This document shows, one piece after another, positions 37,923-42,973 of a stretch of 64,000 nt of DNA. The position numbers and the translations under genes were made by a program. The stretch is from Candidatus Latescibacterota bacterium (GTDB lineage Bacteria > Latescibacterota > UBA2968 > UBA8231), in assembly GCA_965204725.1 (NCBI GenBank), contig OZ242005.1, positions 288,001-352,000 on the forward strand, written 5' to 3'. Each line of letters begins with the position of its first letter. Position 1 is the first letter of the stretch. The notes under the pieces are model-generated. The model ran no database searches and was not told the DNA's origin. It worked only from the letters and a program-made list of their open reading frames with translations.

Positions 37923-37937
37923 GGCAAGGCGCGGCGA

Positions 37938-38351
37938 TTAGGGCTTGAGCAACGTTACGCTCATCATTGGAAAATGTTGGTCGAAAGCAAACGCTTGATC
38001 GATTCCATACTTACGACAAACAGCAAAACTAGTGCAATCGGTGAACGATAGGTCTGCTGAGTTGTATTGACGAAAAATCTGCTTGGCTTCTCCAAACAGA
38101 GTACTATCAATTTTTTCGACCGTTAGAGTACCTGCACTTTCATAGCGTTCAATATGTTCGAGAAATTTCACGGCTAGTGCGTGATGCGCTTTATATCGAA
38201 TAAACGTTGCGGTCTCACCAATCACGTAATCTGTCGTTAAAAATTGAACGCTCTGCCGTCCTAGGTCGTCGTAAATTTTCAAAGCGTCTTCATGGTGTTG
38301 ATCTTTCCGATCGAAATAGGCAGCCCAAGCCCCTGTATCGACAAAAATCAT
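37938..38351 (-). CDS. PIN-domain (VapC-like) ribonuclease toxin
   Basis: IFVDTGAW, D.HH, TTDYVIGET, LSFTDCTSF, AFAFDQHF: the acidic catalytic set is intact. Low GC. Confidence 0.92.
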   Translation of the reverse strand: MIFVDTGAWAAYFDRKDQHHEDALKIYDDLGRQSVQFLTTDYVIGETATFIRYKAHHALAVKFLEHIERYESAGTLTVEKIDSTLFGEAKQIFRQYNSADLSFTDCTSFAVCRKYGIDQAFAFDQHFPMMSVTLLKP

Positions 38352-41300
38352 GGTTTTGAATCCAGTCCATAAATAATTTCATCGTGGTTGATAGAGCCAT
38401 CGGTTCGGTCCGATTCGTAGGCTCCAGCCAACTCGCGAAAAACTTCATATCCTTCTCTTCTTTTGGTGAAAATGTTGGCCGCTTCCAACTCAGGAAACTT
38501 CTCCACGATCTTCACCGTCTCCACACTCACCGCGATCACTTTCCCGATCAGCTTGGTGATATATTGCGGATCGCCCGACCGATTCGGGTCGTTGACAATG
38601 CCGCTGCGTCTGTCCGTCTTGACGGCGTATTGATCGACGACCCATTCCAACGCCGACCGATTGCCCAGCCGATAGTCAAACGCCGCGGGCGGAATGCCAA
38701 CTAGCGTCAAGAAGTCGTTGTACCGAATCTGGGTCTTGTCTTTGGATAGCCGCATCTTTTCGACTCGCCAGTCGAGCGGTACGTCTGGATTTTCAATGAA
38801 CTCAAGCTGATATTCGGGCACATCTTCATAGCCGACGTGAATTTCGGCCAGCCGTTTTCCCGCTTTCGCATAAGCCCAAAAATCTGGCTCGTAGGGAATG
38901 CGCGGCAATGCGCGCTTGAGATTGGCTTGATACCGAGTGCGGTATTGCCGGTGGTGCAACAAGCCATACACATAGTGAAAAATGTCCCATTTGCCGATAG
39001 CATCGTCTCGGTAGTTCAAGCGGAATCGCGCCAACGCTGTATCTGTTATGTTCTCTCGGCGGTTGGTGCCGTCTTCGTCGTAAGTGTAAAAGGGAAAGCA
39101 TTGGGAACTGTCGAGGGAGGTCAACGCCAAGCAGGGGATCATGTTTGTGCAAAAACACCAATAAGCAGCACGTCCTCCAGCCCCCGGAACCATAATCACC
39201 TGATTTTCCGTTTCGGTCTCTGACGTGGGAAAAATGGCTGGAAATACTCCCACCCTATCGTTCATCATTCTATCAAAGTAAAAATTCGATTTTGTAAAGG
39301 GCCGATAGAGCGAATATCGCATTTTTTGCGGGGCGAATTCTGCGATTTTTCCGCCCTGCAACTTATTTTTTAATGTTGAACTCCACTTAATTTTTGCGTT
39401 ATCATACTCCACAAAATCATCAACTTTTGCCTTTCTATCTGTCCGCTCCCACCGATCGACCTCTGCGTTATACGCTCCAATTATCCGCTGAATATTCTCG
39501 GCGAGCGCATCTCGGTTAAAGCCATACACCCAAGCGTCTCGACCGGTATTGACGCCGCTGCTATACGTCTGAAAAATCACCGCCTCCTTGCTCTTGCCCG
39601 CCTTCGCTTCTTTGCTCCCCAGCGGAAGAAACGCAGCAAATTCCCGGTTTTGCAGCCCCTCGGTAAGCCAAGTATGGTGCTCGTCCGGTGCGATCTCCTT
39701 CCATTCCACATTCCCGCAATGCCCTTTCTCATCGAGATAGCGATACTTCTCCTCCTTGCGCCAGTTCGCATCGGCACAGGAATAGAAAATTTTCACCGCT
39801 GTCGCCGCACGATCGCTCCTTTTTACAAAAAGGTTGATACTCACTCCAACCTGAATCCCAAAGACATTGTGAGTGGTCCCTGAGAGCTTTGGATTCTTGC
39901 GAACATTTCCACCCAAGTCGAGCACGTATATTGCATCGAAATCGTCTGCGAGATGTTTTCTCATCCCGTCAAACGCTATCCCATCGAGAAAACTATTATT
40001 CGTTACGAATGCGACAATCCCTTCCGTGCCGATCCGATCCGCAGCCCACCGAATCGCCTTTGCGTACGGGTCTTGTAGCTGCCTTTTGAGCGTCGCCTTA
40101 GAATCCTTGGCGTACGTAGCACTCACCCGCGCATCCATCGTCTCGTACTGCCGATTCTTGTTGTTGTCATTCTCGTTGACTTGACCGACGTTGTAGGGCG
40201 GATTGCCAATAATCACAAACATCGGCGTCTCCTTCTGCCGTTCAACGCGCACCGTATTCTCCACCGTGAATAGGGCCATTTGCACTTCTTCTGCCAACTC
40301 GAACGTATCCACCAAGCATATTCCCTCAAACGGCTGATAATATCCCATCGCCTCGTAAAATTCGTGCTCGATGTTCATGCTCGCGATGTAATACGGCAGC
40401 AACATCACCTCATTGCAGTGCAACTCGGAAGCATACTTATCTTCGAGCGAGGTCTTGCGAATCGCGCGCATCGTGCGGACGATAAAATTGCCCGTGCCGA
40501 CAAACGGGTCGATGATGTGAACGCCGGCGTCGGAAAGTGATCGGCCAAATTCGGCCTTTAGAAGATGCTCGACACTTCGCACCATAAAATCGACAATCGA
40601 CTGCGGCGTGTACACAATCCCGTGCGTATCGGCGACCTCGACGGAAAAACCCTGAAAAAACTGCTCGTACACCGCGTTGAGGAAATGCTGCTTTTGTGCA
40701 AAGTCGCCGATAGTCCCTCCAGTGCGCTCAATCGCAACGTAGAAGCGGTCGAGGCTTTGCAGGAAATCGGCGCGGTTAAAGGACCGAGACGTCAGGGCGT
40801 CAATGACCTTTTCGATCTCGGCGGCGATAACATTGCGGCGCGTGAAGTCTGGATTGCTGAACACCGTGCGAAAAATCCGCTCGGTCAAAAGGTGCTGAAT
40901 GAGCATCTCCTCGACCGCTGCGGCCGAGAGGTTTGGGTTGATCGACGAGCGACATTTTGCGAGAAAATCGGCAAAGGCTGTGGCGAACCCACGACTGCTT
41001 TGCCGCTCCTGCTGAATTTTCGCCGCCAACCCACGCCCGATCGCCGGCATCTCGCCCTTGAACTCCGCGACCGCCTCTTCCCATTGGGCGATCTCCGGCG
41101 GACGGTGCGAAAAGAAGGCTGTAAGCGTCTCAATCAGCCGTTGTGGATCGGTCAGGTCCGCGTCTAAAACAGACTCGCCGCGTTGCCAAAGAATCGCCCG
41201 GGCAGGCGTCTGAAACAGGATGTTGTCGCTGGGATACCCGGCCGCAAACTTGCGCGCCACCTCGGCTGGCAGGTCATCGTCCATATCCTTGGCTTCCCAA

Positions 41301-41548
41301 ACCCCGTGCAGCAAGTTGAAATCGTCGATCAACGCGCCATCGACGACGATTCGCTTATTGCGACCACAGGCGATGGCATACTCGGGTACGAGCGTCCAGT
41401 TGACCTGCCGCCCACCCCACTCAAGCAGTGCTTGAAATGCCGAGCGCACCGAGGTTTCATTCGTCACCCCAAGCCGCTCAAATTGCTCAAGCGATTCGTA
41501 GTACGCCTTAACGGGCTTATGCGTTGATTTGAGATTGAACGTCGGCAT
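38348..41548 (-). CDS. Single-chain restriction-modification enzyme (nuclease + N6-adenine MTase + Type ISP-like C-terminal TRD, no helicase) with antitoxin-like C-terminal tail
   Basis: N-terminal E...VDG...WEAK nuclease; HGIVYTP, IIDPFVGTGNF, GNPPY; YRPF, FPFY, Y.LG.RSALEWVVDQY; GGAGG RBS. Confidence 0.88.
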   Translation of the reverse strand: MPTFNLKSTHKPVKAYYESLEQFERLGVTNETSVRSAFQALLEWGGRQVNWTLVPEYAIACGRNKRIVVDGALIDDFNLLHGVWEAKDMDDDLPAEVARKFAAGYPSDNILFQTPARAILWQRGESVLDADLTDPQRLIETLTAFFSHRPPEIAQWEEAVAEFKGEMPAIGRGLAAKIQQERQSSRGFATAFADFLAKCRSSINPNLSAAAVEEMLIQHLLTERIFRTVFSNPDFTRRNVIAAEIEKVIDALTSRSFNRADFLQSLDRFYVAIERTGGTIGDFAQKQHFLNAVYEQFFQGFSVEVADTHGIVYTPQSIVDFMVRSVEHLLKAEFGRSLSDAGVHIIDPFVGTGNFIVRTMRAIRKTSLEDKYASELHCNEVMLLPYYIASMNIEHEFYEAMGYYQPFEGICLVDTFELAEEVQMALFTVENTVRVERQKETPMFVIIGNPPYNVGQVNENDNNKNRQYETMDARVSATYAKDSKATLKRQLQDPYAKAIRWAADRIGTEGIVAFVTNNSFLDGIAFDGMRKHLADDFDAIYVLDLGGNVRKNPKLSGTTHNVFGIQVGVSINLFVKRSDRAATAVKIFYSCADANWRKEEKYRYLDEKGHCGNVEWKEIAPDEHHTWLTEGLQNREFAAFLPLGSKEAKAGKSKEAVIFQTYSSGVNTGRDAWVYGFNRDALAENIQRIIGAYNAEVDRWERTDRKAKVDDFVEYDNAKIKWSSTLKNKLQGGKIAEFAPQKMRYSLYRPFTKSNFYFDRMMNDRVGVFPAIFPTSETETENQVIMVPGAGGRAAYWCFCTNMIPCLALTSLDSSQCFPFYTYDEDGTNRRENITDTALARFRLNYRDDAIGKWDIFHYVYGLLHHRQYRTRYQANLKRALPRIPYEPDFWAYAKAGKRLAEIHVGYEDVPEYQLEFIENPDVPLDWRVEKMRLSKDKTQIRYNDFLTLVGIPPAAFDYRLGNRSALEWVVDQYAVKTDRRSGIVNDPNRSGDPQYITKLIGKVIAVSVETVKIVEKFPELEAANIFTKRREGYEVFRELAGAYESDRTDGSINHDEIIYGLDSKP

Positions 41549-41566
41549 AGCAAAACCTCCATTCCA

Positions 41567-42892
41567 TTAAAATTTCAAGTGTGGAAGAATCCGCGTCGGG
41601 ACGAGGCGGCGATATTCATCCCAATACGCGCCATACTTTTGCTGGCAGCGCTTTTCGTCGCGCCGGGCGCGATGCACCAGCAAAATCGTCAGAAAAATCA
41701 CGTAAAAATAAGGCAAGAAGTGCGAAAACAGGGCCGGCACCGTCCAAAAGAAGGCCGCCAAAATTTCCGGCACATAGTGAAAGTGCCGCGCCACGCCCCA
41801 CCAACCGGACGCCAACAAAACGGTCTCTTTTTCCACGCCGTTTTCCGCGCAATAGTTAGCGACAATAAGCCGCGGCTTTTTCCCCCAGATCGTACATTCG
41901 CCGCCCGTTGCTCGAACTACCTGACGTTGCCTATCGGCAAAGTAGTTGATCATCACCGCCCCCACTCCCAAGACCGCGATCCCGACCGACCACGCCATAC
42001 CTAGATGATGCGGGTGATGCACCAAGTACAAAATGGGCGAGGTATAAATCGCCGGCACCCATACCAAACACCCCCAGCAAATCATAAATCCGGCCCGGTC
42101 GTGCATGATGTCAATTGAACAGAGATAACCCGTTTCCCAGACAAAAAATTTGACCAAATAAGTTAGCATGACGATTAGGGCCACCACCATTGAATCGCTC
42201 AAGCCGCCTAGCTCGGCCTGCTTGGCCGCAAACGACAACACAATGATCGGCCACCCCATCAAGCCAAAGCGACAATTGGTAAACATCTTGACGTCCCAGC
42301 CCAATATGCGCGGGTATAGTTCCGTTCCCCAGTAATAATCGAAAATAAAATGGCCGCTCAGCCCTCCATCCGGCCCAGAGGGAAAAAACCGGCCCTTGCA
42401 GTACAGCAGCAAACAAAACGCCAAACTAAAGACATTCAACGCCCCGATAATACCCGCAAAATTATCATAGACGATAGTCGGCTCGAACCAATTGAACACA
42501 AAGCCACCCAAAAAGAACAAGCCCAGCGAAATCAAAAAACACGCCACGCCATTGGCGCGGTACACCGGCACATAGCCCTTCGGCGTGATCGGCCCGCAAA
42601 AGCGCCGCCCCGGCACCAAGCGCATCAGCAACAACTGCACCGCAGCAAAAGTGCCAATGATTTTCCAGCCAGCCGCCGTGCCCCAGACGACCGGCTCCCA
42701 TGCCGACACCAATTCAGCAAAAAAACCAACGGCGAGGACCTGCTCTGCAAAGGATGCCACCGAGCCTTGGTGTTTCACATTGATCTCCCACACCAACAAG
42801 GCTGTCGGGGGGCAGCAAATCAGCAAAAACAGCGGTGCCAATGTATGGTGAAAAAGATGTCGTACCTTATTCTTCTTAGATCGAGTATCCAT
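41567..42892 (-). CDS. Sterol reductase, 7-dehydrocholesterol reductase-like (ERG4/ERG24 family)
   Basis: Multi-TM; GPITPKG.VP.Y.ANG, DYYWGTELYPR, DVKMFTNCRFG, DIMHDRAGF..CWG, LLASGWWGVARHFHY, RARRDE.RC..KYG.YW. Confidence 0.9.
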   Translation of the reverse strand: MDTRSKKNKVRHLFHHTLAPLFLLICCPPTALLVWEINVKHQGSVASFAEQVLAVGFFAELVSAWEPVVWGTAAGWKIIGTFAAVQLLLMRLVPGRRFCGPITPKGYVPVYRANGVACFLISLGLFFLGGFVFNWFEPTIVYDNFAGIIGALNVFSLAFCLLLYCKGRFFPSGPDGGLSGHFIFDYYWGTELYPRILGWDVKMFTNCRFGLMGWPIIVLSFAAKQAELGGLSDSMVVALIVMLTYLVKFFVWETGYLCSIDIMHDRAGFMICWGCLVWVPAIYTSPILYLVHHPHHLGMAWSVGIAVLGVGAVMINYFADRQRQVVRATGGECTIWGKKPRLIVANYCAENGVEKETVLLASGWWGVARHFHYVPEILAAFFWTVPALFSHFLPYFYVIFLTILLVHRARRDEKRCQQKYGAYWDEYRRLVPTRILPHLKF

Positions 42893-42973
42893 CCGTCCGT
42901 CCCGTTTTTCAGCGCACCTGCTCGTTGCTCATGAGCAAAATTAACGTAGATTTTCCCTAGAAAGGAAACCGCC

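Follow-up and report, generated by a model that had tools for sequence, protein, structure and literature searches.

One of the closest described counterparts of the locus reported here is PrrC–EcoprrI, in which, according to the accessible text of bioRxiv 10.1101/2024.01.29.577857, a restriction–modification (RM) protein neutralises an RNase whose gene is embedded beside the RM genes. We analysed a 64,000-nt stretch of DNA (the window) from Candidatus Latescibacterota bacterium (assembly GCA_965204725.1, contig OZ242005.1, positions 288,001–352,000 of the forward strand; the genome is referred to below as G000), in which the gene for a predicted Type IIL RM enzyme ends in a 45-residue, antitoxin-like peptide and overlaps the gene for a predicted VapC-type RNase with a PIN domain. 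The likeness to PrrC–EcoprrI is an analogy of concept; a phage trigger is known for PrrC. The parts differ: as an anticodon nuclease of the ABC-ATPase type, PrrC is kept in check by a multi-subunit Type I enzyme, encoded by an hsd operon, with which it associates non-covalently, whereas the window encodes a 137-residue VapC-type PIN protein and a Type IIL enzyme with a fused antitoxin peptide.

Three further groups of systems bear comparison. HEC-03, which is embedded in Hma systems, likewise pairs a VapC-like PIN protein with a large non-VapB partner in a defence context, but that partner is, in the accessible part of its description, unrelated to VapB, whereas the RM protein of the window appears to carry a VapB-type toxin-binding segment. 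Fused and multidomain toxin–antitoxin modules (Gerdes 2025, mBio, PMC11980606) share fusion-rearranged parts and their combination with defence enzymes, as in the ptuXYZ operon, where a RelE-like toxin adjoins a Type IV restriction-like protein; in the portion of that article available to us, however, toxins are fused to antitoxins or lie beside defence genes, and an antitoxin peptide on an RM enzyme is not described. Finally, VapBC pairs (the nearest solved toxin being VapC20, PDB 5wzf) have a PIN protein with four acidic residues, an antidote segment immediately upstream and a stop/start overlap, all of which recur here, and the window tail is by profile similarity homologous to the ends of small antitoxins whose domains are RHH, Phd, AF2212-like or HTH. 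Unlike VapBC, the locus lacks both a small labile antitoxin of its own and a DNA-binding domain, and the toxin-binding segment forms the end of a 1066-residue enzyme. DrdV-type RM enzymes and VapBC are thus known parts; new is a type II antitoxin segment on a restriction enzyme and on other large defence-island proteins. No report of an antitoxin segment fused to an RM enzyme was found in the full-text literature searched, a coverage that excludes most subscription journals.

We consider it probable (roughly 0.68) that the locus is a hybrid of a Type IIL RM enzyme and a VapBC-type pair, in which the sole antitoxin element is the 45-residue C-terminal peptide of the RM protein and the PIN RNase enforces retention of the RM gene. 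The toxin-binding peptide of an antitoxin would then be physically part of a restriction enzyme. The main features of the locus are as follows (ORF, open reading frame).

38348–41548, minus strand: RM–tail ORF, 1066 residues, DrdV-like Type IIL RM enzyme plus antitoxin-like tail
41039–41548, minus strand: N-terminal PD-ExK endonuclease, residues 1–170, from alignment to PDB 7lo5
40721–41032, minus strand: helical connector/coupler, residues 173–276, Pfam PF22240 ISP_coupler (4.3e-16)
39911–40693, minus strand: N6-adenine methyltransferase, residues 286–546, Pfam N6_Mtase (1.4e-13, residues 286–474) and Eco57I (1.6e-5)
38555–39577, minus strand: target-recognition domain (TRD), residues 658–998, Pfam PF18135 Type_ISP_C (7.9e-102)
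38351–38485, minus strand: 45-residue tail, residues 1022–1066, past the DrdV fold and by sequence homologous to the toxin-binding C-termini of VapB-type antitoxins
38348–38351, minus strand: ATGA overlap of the RM–tail stop and the PIN start, a presumed site of translational coupling
37938–38351, minus strand: PIN ORF, 137 residues, predicted VapC-type RNase toxin gene (Pfam PIN)

DrdV is described in the accessible part of bioRxiv 10.1101/2021.01.06.425610 as a single-chain Type IIL enzyme composed of an N-terminal endonuclease, a helical connector, a methyltransferase and a C-terminal TRD, with a nuclease site formed by D64, E79 and K81 plus K94 and E25. It is the best solved relative of the window protein (PDB 7lo5, 1029 residues; E 3.4e-203, query 13–1019 to chain 6–1025), and the PD-ExK nuclease, connector, N6-adenine methyltransferase and TRD of the two proteins are co-linear (PDB 7lo5/7lvv). 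All five nuclease residues are kept (E31, D70, E85, K87 and K100, aligned with DrdV E25, D64, E79, K81 and K94), the methyltransferase motifs DPFVGTGNF and GNPPY occur in the translation and align to DrdV, and the PADLOC profile REase_MTase_IIG (PDLC03621) is matched over positions 8–1012 of 1024 at 1.3e-244. The ratio of nonsynonymous to synonymous divergence (dN/dS) of the RM body is 0.14–0.23 against two orthologues. The sequence of connector, gamma-type N6-adenine methyltransferase and C-terminal TRD in one chain of about 1000 residues is that of the DrdV/MmeI-like Type IIL class. By these alignments, the RM part is complete and belongs with the DrdV-like enzymes of this class. An initial reading of the locus, made from the sequence alone (the sequence-only reading), had taken the protein to be Type ISP-like. 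This label was rejected because a Pfam scan of the RM ORF found no helicase or ATPase family and because LlaGI and LlaBIII, which are of Type ISP, a class with an N-terminal Mrr-type nuclease and an SF2 helicase-like ATPase motor, align solely to query residues 189–1023 (chain residues 582–1404 and 746–1576, respectively). DrdV stops at residue 1029, just past its TRD, whereas the window protein has 45 more residues, which fall into an antitoxin family, and its stop codon is overlapped by a PIN gene. The protein departs in this respect from the usual Type IIL ending shortly past the TRD, which does not exclude its enzyme part from the class.

The C-terminus of the RM–tail ORF reads ...VETVKIVEKFPEL-EAANIFTKRREGYEVFRELAGAYESDRTDGSINHDEIIYGLDSKP. 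The DrdV chain ends about four residues past its aligned end, and a search with residues 860–1066 returned 5705 homologues at E<=1e-3, among the best 120 of which the tail is absent from 112, these mostly ending a few residues past the conserved ...ETVEIVEGLPEL. A tail or its remnant is present in the other eight (P0001–P0007 and P0013). The RM paralogue encoded in the same genome (73% identity, 1029 residues) also has a normal end without a tail. The suspicion that the protein extends past the usual family end is therefore borne out by homologues, DrdV and the paralogue alike; the initial estimate of about 45 extra residues stood as well, while the span first given, 38348–38488, is corrected to 38351–38485 (residues 1022–1066). 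Misassembly at the junction was considered and rejected since independent assemblies (L001, L039 and P0001–P0004) show the same RM/tail junction, and it is not an assembly artefact.

To characterise the tail, a 48-column profile (A1) was built from the tails of PIN loci and searched against 1.84 billion proteins. This gave 63 cluster representatives at E<=1e-3, of which 55 are proteins of at most 131 residues with the motif at their C-terminus; two long matches are repeat artefacts. Small antitoxins reach E values as low as 1e-19 in this search. The domains at the N-termini of those small tail proteins that were sampled (AF2212-like, RHH_1, PhdYeFM, HTH_17 and UPF0150/HicB-like) are the usual DNA-binding or dimerisation modules of antitoxins. 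The motif over 121 distinct tails is Y-[AS]-x-L-[D]-[EQ]-[ML]-[VI]-G-x(6)-T-D-[GA]-S-V-N-H-D-x-x-I-Y, and the window tail retains every near-invariant position (Y16, G24, T31, D32, S34, N36, H37, D38, I41 and Y42). The resemblance to antitoxin C-termini, first proposed in the sequence-only reading, thus corresponds to a real family, and by these matches the tail is a homologue of the toxin-binding part at the C-terminus of small antitoxins that precede this type of PIN gene. Two such loci (L034 and L035) have RHH antitoxins that carry this motif and immediately precede PIN homologues, and in a third (L007) a stand-alone antitoxin of 76 residues ends in ...EYSALDQIVGLCNTGRTDASVNHDQILYG and overlaps its PIN gene by ATGA; the latter protein matched no family in Pfam, NCBIfam, PADLOC or PHROGs. 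Pfam detected no RHH, AbrB, Phd or HTH domain in the RM–tail protein, the N-terminal part of which is the 1021-residue RM enzyme. The tail profile matched nothing meaningful in the PDB (best E 0.17), where no solved structure includes the tail, and a match of the tail to Pfam DUF2525 below the cut-off (E 0.004–0.15) was rejected as chance. Among intact copies of the fusion seen in the window (type A, below), the dN/dS of the tail is 0.20–0.27, from small counts.

The PIN ORF matches Pfam PIN at 6.5e-13, and a profile search of the PDB gave VapC20 as its closest solved protein (5wzf, 1.2e-20; named there a 23S rRNA-specific endonuclease). Its acidic residues D5, E46, D105 and D124 do not vary among 15 homologues. 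The TGA of the RM–tail ORF lies at 38350–38348 and the PIN ATG at 38351–38349, giving the four-base overlap ATGA, a junction that is shared by most related loci; the intact PIN gene noticed at the outset, overlapping the RM stop, retains all four catalytic acidic residues. Inspection of the ORFs of the locus found no other plausible small ORF between or beside the two genes. The tail profile matches the window at E 2.9e-25 and has no second match in the genome, which also contains one PIN of this subfamily only, so the RM tail is the sole recognisable antidote; as first supposed, there is no separate antitoxin gene. A co-fold of the PIN protein (alignment A2) with the tail (alignment A1) scored 0.30, with the mark at 0.32 and no controls, and counts neither way for binding.

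To investigate how tail and PIN are distributed, eight loci with PIN homologues were first fetched from public genomes. These showed three arrangements: the same fusion in a syntenic position (L001), the 76-residue antitoxin of L007, and, in six loci titled as Poribacteria metagenome-assembled genomes (MAGs), a protein of about 600 residues, here called X, that ends in the tail peptide and overlaps the PIN gene. Across the phylum of the window, the tail profile found a match at E<=0.01 in 27 of 168 genomes, and outside the window the tail is followed by a PIN gene in 21 of 27 loci, usually via ATGA. The carriers of the tail are diverse. X is the commonest; the others are the N-terminal half of X (278–295 residues), the RM enzyme, a 405-residue protein of no assigned family, a HicB-like protein and one that is DUF2806/Abi_alpha-like (1.8e-38). 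If the tail works like its relatives, finding one cassette on unrelated carriers illustrates how antitoxin segments travel as separate modules.

The linkage between the two elements is strong. Among 80 X loci (L079–L158), 39 have both tail and PIN, four have a tail without PIN (one of them at a contig end), 37 have neither and none has a PIN without a tail (Fisher p 1e-18, a value that overstates the association because the loci are related and not independent samples). Likewise, 44 of 46 distinct intact PIN genes have an adjacent intact tail; of the remaining two, one is preceded, about 110 nt upstream, by an RHH antitoxin with the tail, and the other has a tail split by an insertion sequence (IS) element seven residues from its end. 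All 45 tails beside an intact PIN keep seven or eight of eight invariant residues, compared with a mean of 5.4 in ten PIN-less tails, most of which are truncated. Tail and PIN therefore form a portable cassette, its two parts being closely tied to each other both in occurrence and in decay. The tail may outlive the PIN and never the reverse, as predicted for a toxic PIN neutralised by the tail, and this linkage fits a role of the tail as the antidote. The same pattern bears on a quite different reading, that PIN is an accessory nuclease and not a toxin, recruited by the tail to the RM enzyme, X or the DUF2806 protein and adding RNA or DNA cutting to them. HEC-03, an ABC ATPase with a PIN protein, offers a precedent as a tested defence system with a large non-VapB partner. 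We regard this reading as highly improbable: tails and PIN proteins of the same kind also form ordinary small toxin–antitoxin pairs with DNA-binding antitoxins, and the one-sided loss of PIN is what toxicity predicts.

Several loci show the cassette in altered states. In L024 (genome G086, oriented positions about 1620–2700), an IS-like element with a transposase ORF lies within the tail codons, between ...NHDEV and IYGERSK, and parts X from an intact PIN gene; every other intact PIN gene of the data set has an unbroken tail. PIN genes with an early in-frame stop and otherwise full length occur in L014 (G082, codon 15) and L020 (G088, codon 9); in the latter, the carrier X is cut down to a 53-residue remnant and the tail is still perfect. 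In L040 (G083) and L028 (G077), a Phd/YefM-like ORF (..IKPKYVVDEKGRKTAVVLSIKDY..) replaces PIN from its first few codons, which suggests cassette exchange between toxin–antitoxin modules at the junction.

As the commonest carrier, X was characterised further. A total of 746 homologues were found at E<=1e-3 in many phyla, including one archaeal MAG (example genes are L046:5563–7389 and L004:2232–4001, both on the plus strand). X measures about 530–560 residues without the tail and about 575–630 with it; members from many phyla stop some 45 residues earlier, directly past ...LDYFI..x..SG.I, so X gained the tail as an add-on too. No family in Pfam, NCBIfam, PADLOC or PHROGs matched X, a profile of X against the PDB returned nothing, and a stored homologue from the ESM Atlas (P0291) matched only unnamed 'hypothetical' clusters. 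A conserved R-x5-H (LRSxxxAHRKG) lies near its C-terminus and resembles the Rx4-6H motif of HEPN proteins. Members without the tail occur singly and in differing surroundings, in some cases next to ORFs that by their translations look integrase- or transposase-like, and X may for this reason be a single-gene defence or mobile-element protein. It is flagged here as a widespread uncharacterised family for study. In L006/L113, L116, L122, L128, L125, L126, L132, L133, L146 and L153, X, tail and PIN are preceded by an AAA_15 ABC-type ATPase (PADLOC PD-T4-4_A 3e-40, AriA 7e-24) and a 167-residue ORF; in six loci a DrdV-like RM gene lies between these two genes and X, an arrangement suggestive of a defence island that varies yet keeps its gene order.

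Searching for further RM–tail fusions showed that the arrangement recurs. A tree of 116 RM bodies, from which the tail columns were excluded, places three types of fusion at three different positions, so there were at least three independent fusion events. Type A, to which the window belongs, has the junction ...LP.LEA(A/E)NIF.KR.EGY and comprises six sequences in a single RM clade (support 98); within the genus it is found in five genomes. In type B (junction ...LPELRNKIEEGYAILDEMVG), the tail is frameshifted and PIN is replaced by a Phd-like gene, while in P0006 an RM protein is fused to the last ~220 residues of X. Arrays of RM, X and PIN genes are found in L002–L005 and L046, and occur in 13 of 43 tail-bearing X loci as opposed to none of 37 tail-less ones. 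As such arrays are common, a deletion within one of them is the simplest origin of a fusion: it would have removed X and joined the tail of X to the RM end. For type A this remains an inferred event, with descent of the tail from X more parsimonious than descent from a small antitoxin. Comparison of window positions 37938–38660 with L039 (contig C234 of genome G118) revealed that the last 55 RM codons have about three times the synonymous divergence (20 of 37 sites) of tail and PIN (27 of 115; Fisher p 0.0009), a possible sign of recombination close to the RM/tail junction or at it.

The type-A cassette lies at the site between era and purD in G000, G145, G136 and G140; in G118 it is found about 6 kb from era, adjoining a duplicated 3' fragment of that gene. 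Tail and PIN are both intact in G000, G145 and G118. In G136 the RM gene is intact (omega 0.14), PIN is deleted and the tail is degenerate and shortened, whereas in G140 PIN is cut to 37 codons, the tail contains a stop and the RM gene is broken. A broken carrier beside an intact coupled PIN was seen in no locus, and this order of decay fits toxin–antitoxin logic.

These data allow the proposed hybrid of RM enzyme and toxin–antitoxin pair to be set out as a mechanism. The tail would wrap the PIN dimer and block its active site, as the C-termini of VapB proteins do, and the ATGA overlap would couple PIN synthesis to a completed RM chain. Loss of the 3.2-kb RM gene, its shut-off, or a nonsense or frameshift mutation in it would end the supply of antidote and free the RNase, because the antidote is encoded by the last 45 codons of that ORF. 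PIN would in this way enforce the retention and integrity of the RM gene, a form of addiction, and could also fire when phage attack halts host translation or destroys the RM protein. If the tail works like its relatives, the RNase polices both integrity and expression of a 3.2-kb defence gene, which would amount to a simple stabilising mechanism for single-chain RM enzymes. Such enzymes presumably cannot use the classic addiction in which the methylase outlives the nuclease. The antitoxin nature of the tail is well supported by homology and comparative genomics.

A number of observations weigh against this explanation. The toxicity of PIN, its binding by the tail and its neutralisation are predictions from homology and gene-neighbourhood statistics in related genomes, and the dN/dS of PIN among intact type-A copies (0.36–0.54, small counts) indicates moderate constraint only. 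A large, presumably stable carrier is at odds with the paradigm of the labile antitoxin, and a domain that could bind DNA for autoregulation is missing, so that no route to activation is apparent. That the type-A tail stems from X is a parsimony reading rather than a demonstrated event. Moreover, two of the five loci of the genus have decayed, the other two fusion events for which DNA or context is available are remnants without PIN, and direct RM–tail fusions are rare, with two among 80 RM loci in the genome collection. A scan of JGI metagenomes with the RM end and the tail found five loci, all of them RM ends without a tail. The directly fused state may therefore be short-lived on evolutionary time scales.

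The frequent decay and the rarity of direct fusions are also what would be expected if the fusion were a transient deletion scar, in which X was lost, the cell survived by virtue of the in-frame tail, and the fusion merely keeps a selfish toxin harmless on its way to loss. The recurrence of independent fusions and the existence of partial forms (the N-terminal half of X with a tail, at 278–295 residues, the 53-residue remnant and P0006) are in keeping with such a course. Type A has nonetheless persisted over an RM synonymous divergence (dS) of about 0.8 and a PIN amino-acid divergence of 27%, with all motif residues of the tail kept under a dN/dS of 0.20–0.27, and the scar differs from the preferred hybrid only in denying the RM gene or its host any benefit. 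We consider this reading unlikely. A one-off scar had been named from the start as an outcome that would undo the proposal; the fusion indeed probably arose by deletion of X, but it has persisted under purifying selection in several species.

The nature of the carriers raises the question of guard-type immunity. According to this explanation, already favoured in the sequence-only reading, the RM protein would hold PIN inactive until a phage anti-restriction protein, or degradation or inhibition of the RM enzyme, frees the RNase, which kills or arrests the infected cell; the locus would then be a fused counterpart of PrrC–EcoprrI. Precedents exist in PrrC/EcoprrI/Stp and PARIS/Ocr (accessible text of bioRxiv 10.1101/2024.01.29.577857). 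Every large carrier of the cassette, whether DrdV-like RM enzyme, DUF2806/Abi_alpha-like protein or X, is found in defence-type surroundings, X adjoining RM genes or AAA_15 ATPases that resemble AriA and PD-T4-4_A, and the stable and widespread combination of X with tail and PIN fits a sensor–effector pair better than an accident. However, toxin–antitoxin modules and deletions also accumulate in defence islands, so the identities of the carriers may reflect neighbourhood only, and the sequence gives no pointer to a trigger or release mechanism. The RM enzyme also survives well without PIN, as in G136 (omega 0.14), and 72 of 80 DrdV-like RM loci lack PIN. By analogy with the known cases we think a guard function possible but unlikely; if true, it would make the locus a compact model of guard-type immunity with the defence enzyme as guardee. 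A broader version, which we put forward just as tentatively, is that tail and PIN form a portable plug-in for the 3' end of any defence gene, be it for a DrdV-like RM enzyme, X or a DUF2806/Abi_alpha-like protein, such that the carrier keeps a suicide RNase in check and phage attack on the carrier through inhibition, proteolysis or host shut-off would free PIN. The window enzyme would in that event be a covalently wired, single-operon equivalent of PrrC–EcoprrI and, among RM enzymes, the first to be a type II antitoxin in its own right.

In the preferred hybrid, the tail would act as part of the full-length enzyme. A free peptide has also been envisaged as the working antitoxin, produced either from an internal TTG start at 38488, which would give a product of 46 residues, or by proteolytic clipping of the tail. 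The TTG is in frame with GGAG 12 nt upstream, the situation in L001, with TTG as well, is similar, and the linker that leads from TRD to motif (EAANIFTKRRE) may lie exposed. L039, the third intact locus, instead has CTC at this codon and lacks GGAG; the GGAG of the window derives from Val-Glu codons that are kept in tail-less homologues too, and the window tail contains no internal Met. A scan of the minus strand between 37700 and 43100 identified no sigma-70-like promoter, a weak test given that the consensus may not apply to this phylum. With neither start codon nor GGAG conserved and no promoter-like site, the 46-residue product suggested earlier is not supported, and we judge a free peptide very unlikely.

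The cassette occupies a compositionally distinct island, together with one further gene:

37923–42973, strand not applicable: low-GC island with PIN, RM–tail and ERG4/ERG24-family ORFs, from composition and synteny
41567–42892, minus strand: ERG4/ERG24 sterol-reductase-family membrane protein (PF01222, 5.9e-74)

The GC content of the island is 42–58%, compared with 61–71% in its flanks, and the insertion point is between era and purD, which in 23 of 30 loci from the genus are direct neighbours separated by about 25 nt; the RM cassette occupies this site in four. A search for direct repeats flanking the island gave none that were convincing. The ERG4/ERG24-family ORF, which is unusual company for a defence cassette, lies 18 nt upstream of the RM gene and is present in L001 and absent from the islands of G136 and G140.

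The genome of the window has a second defence-type cluster (L159; G000:C1:1138000–1152000). It contains the tail-less DrdV-like paralogue, a C5 cytosine methyltransferase, an HATPase_c_3 protein and two ORFs of 854 and 498 residues with no Pfam match, and a C-terminal RM fragment lies about 4 kb from it.

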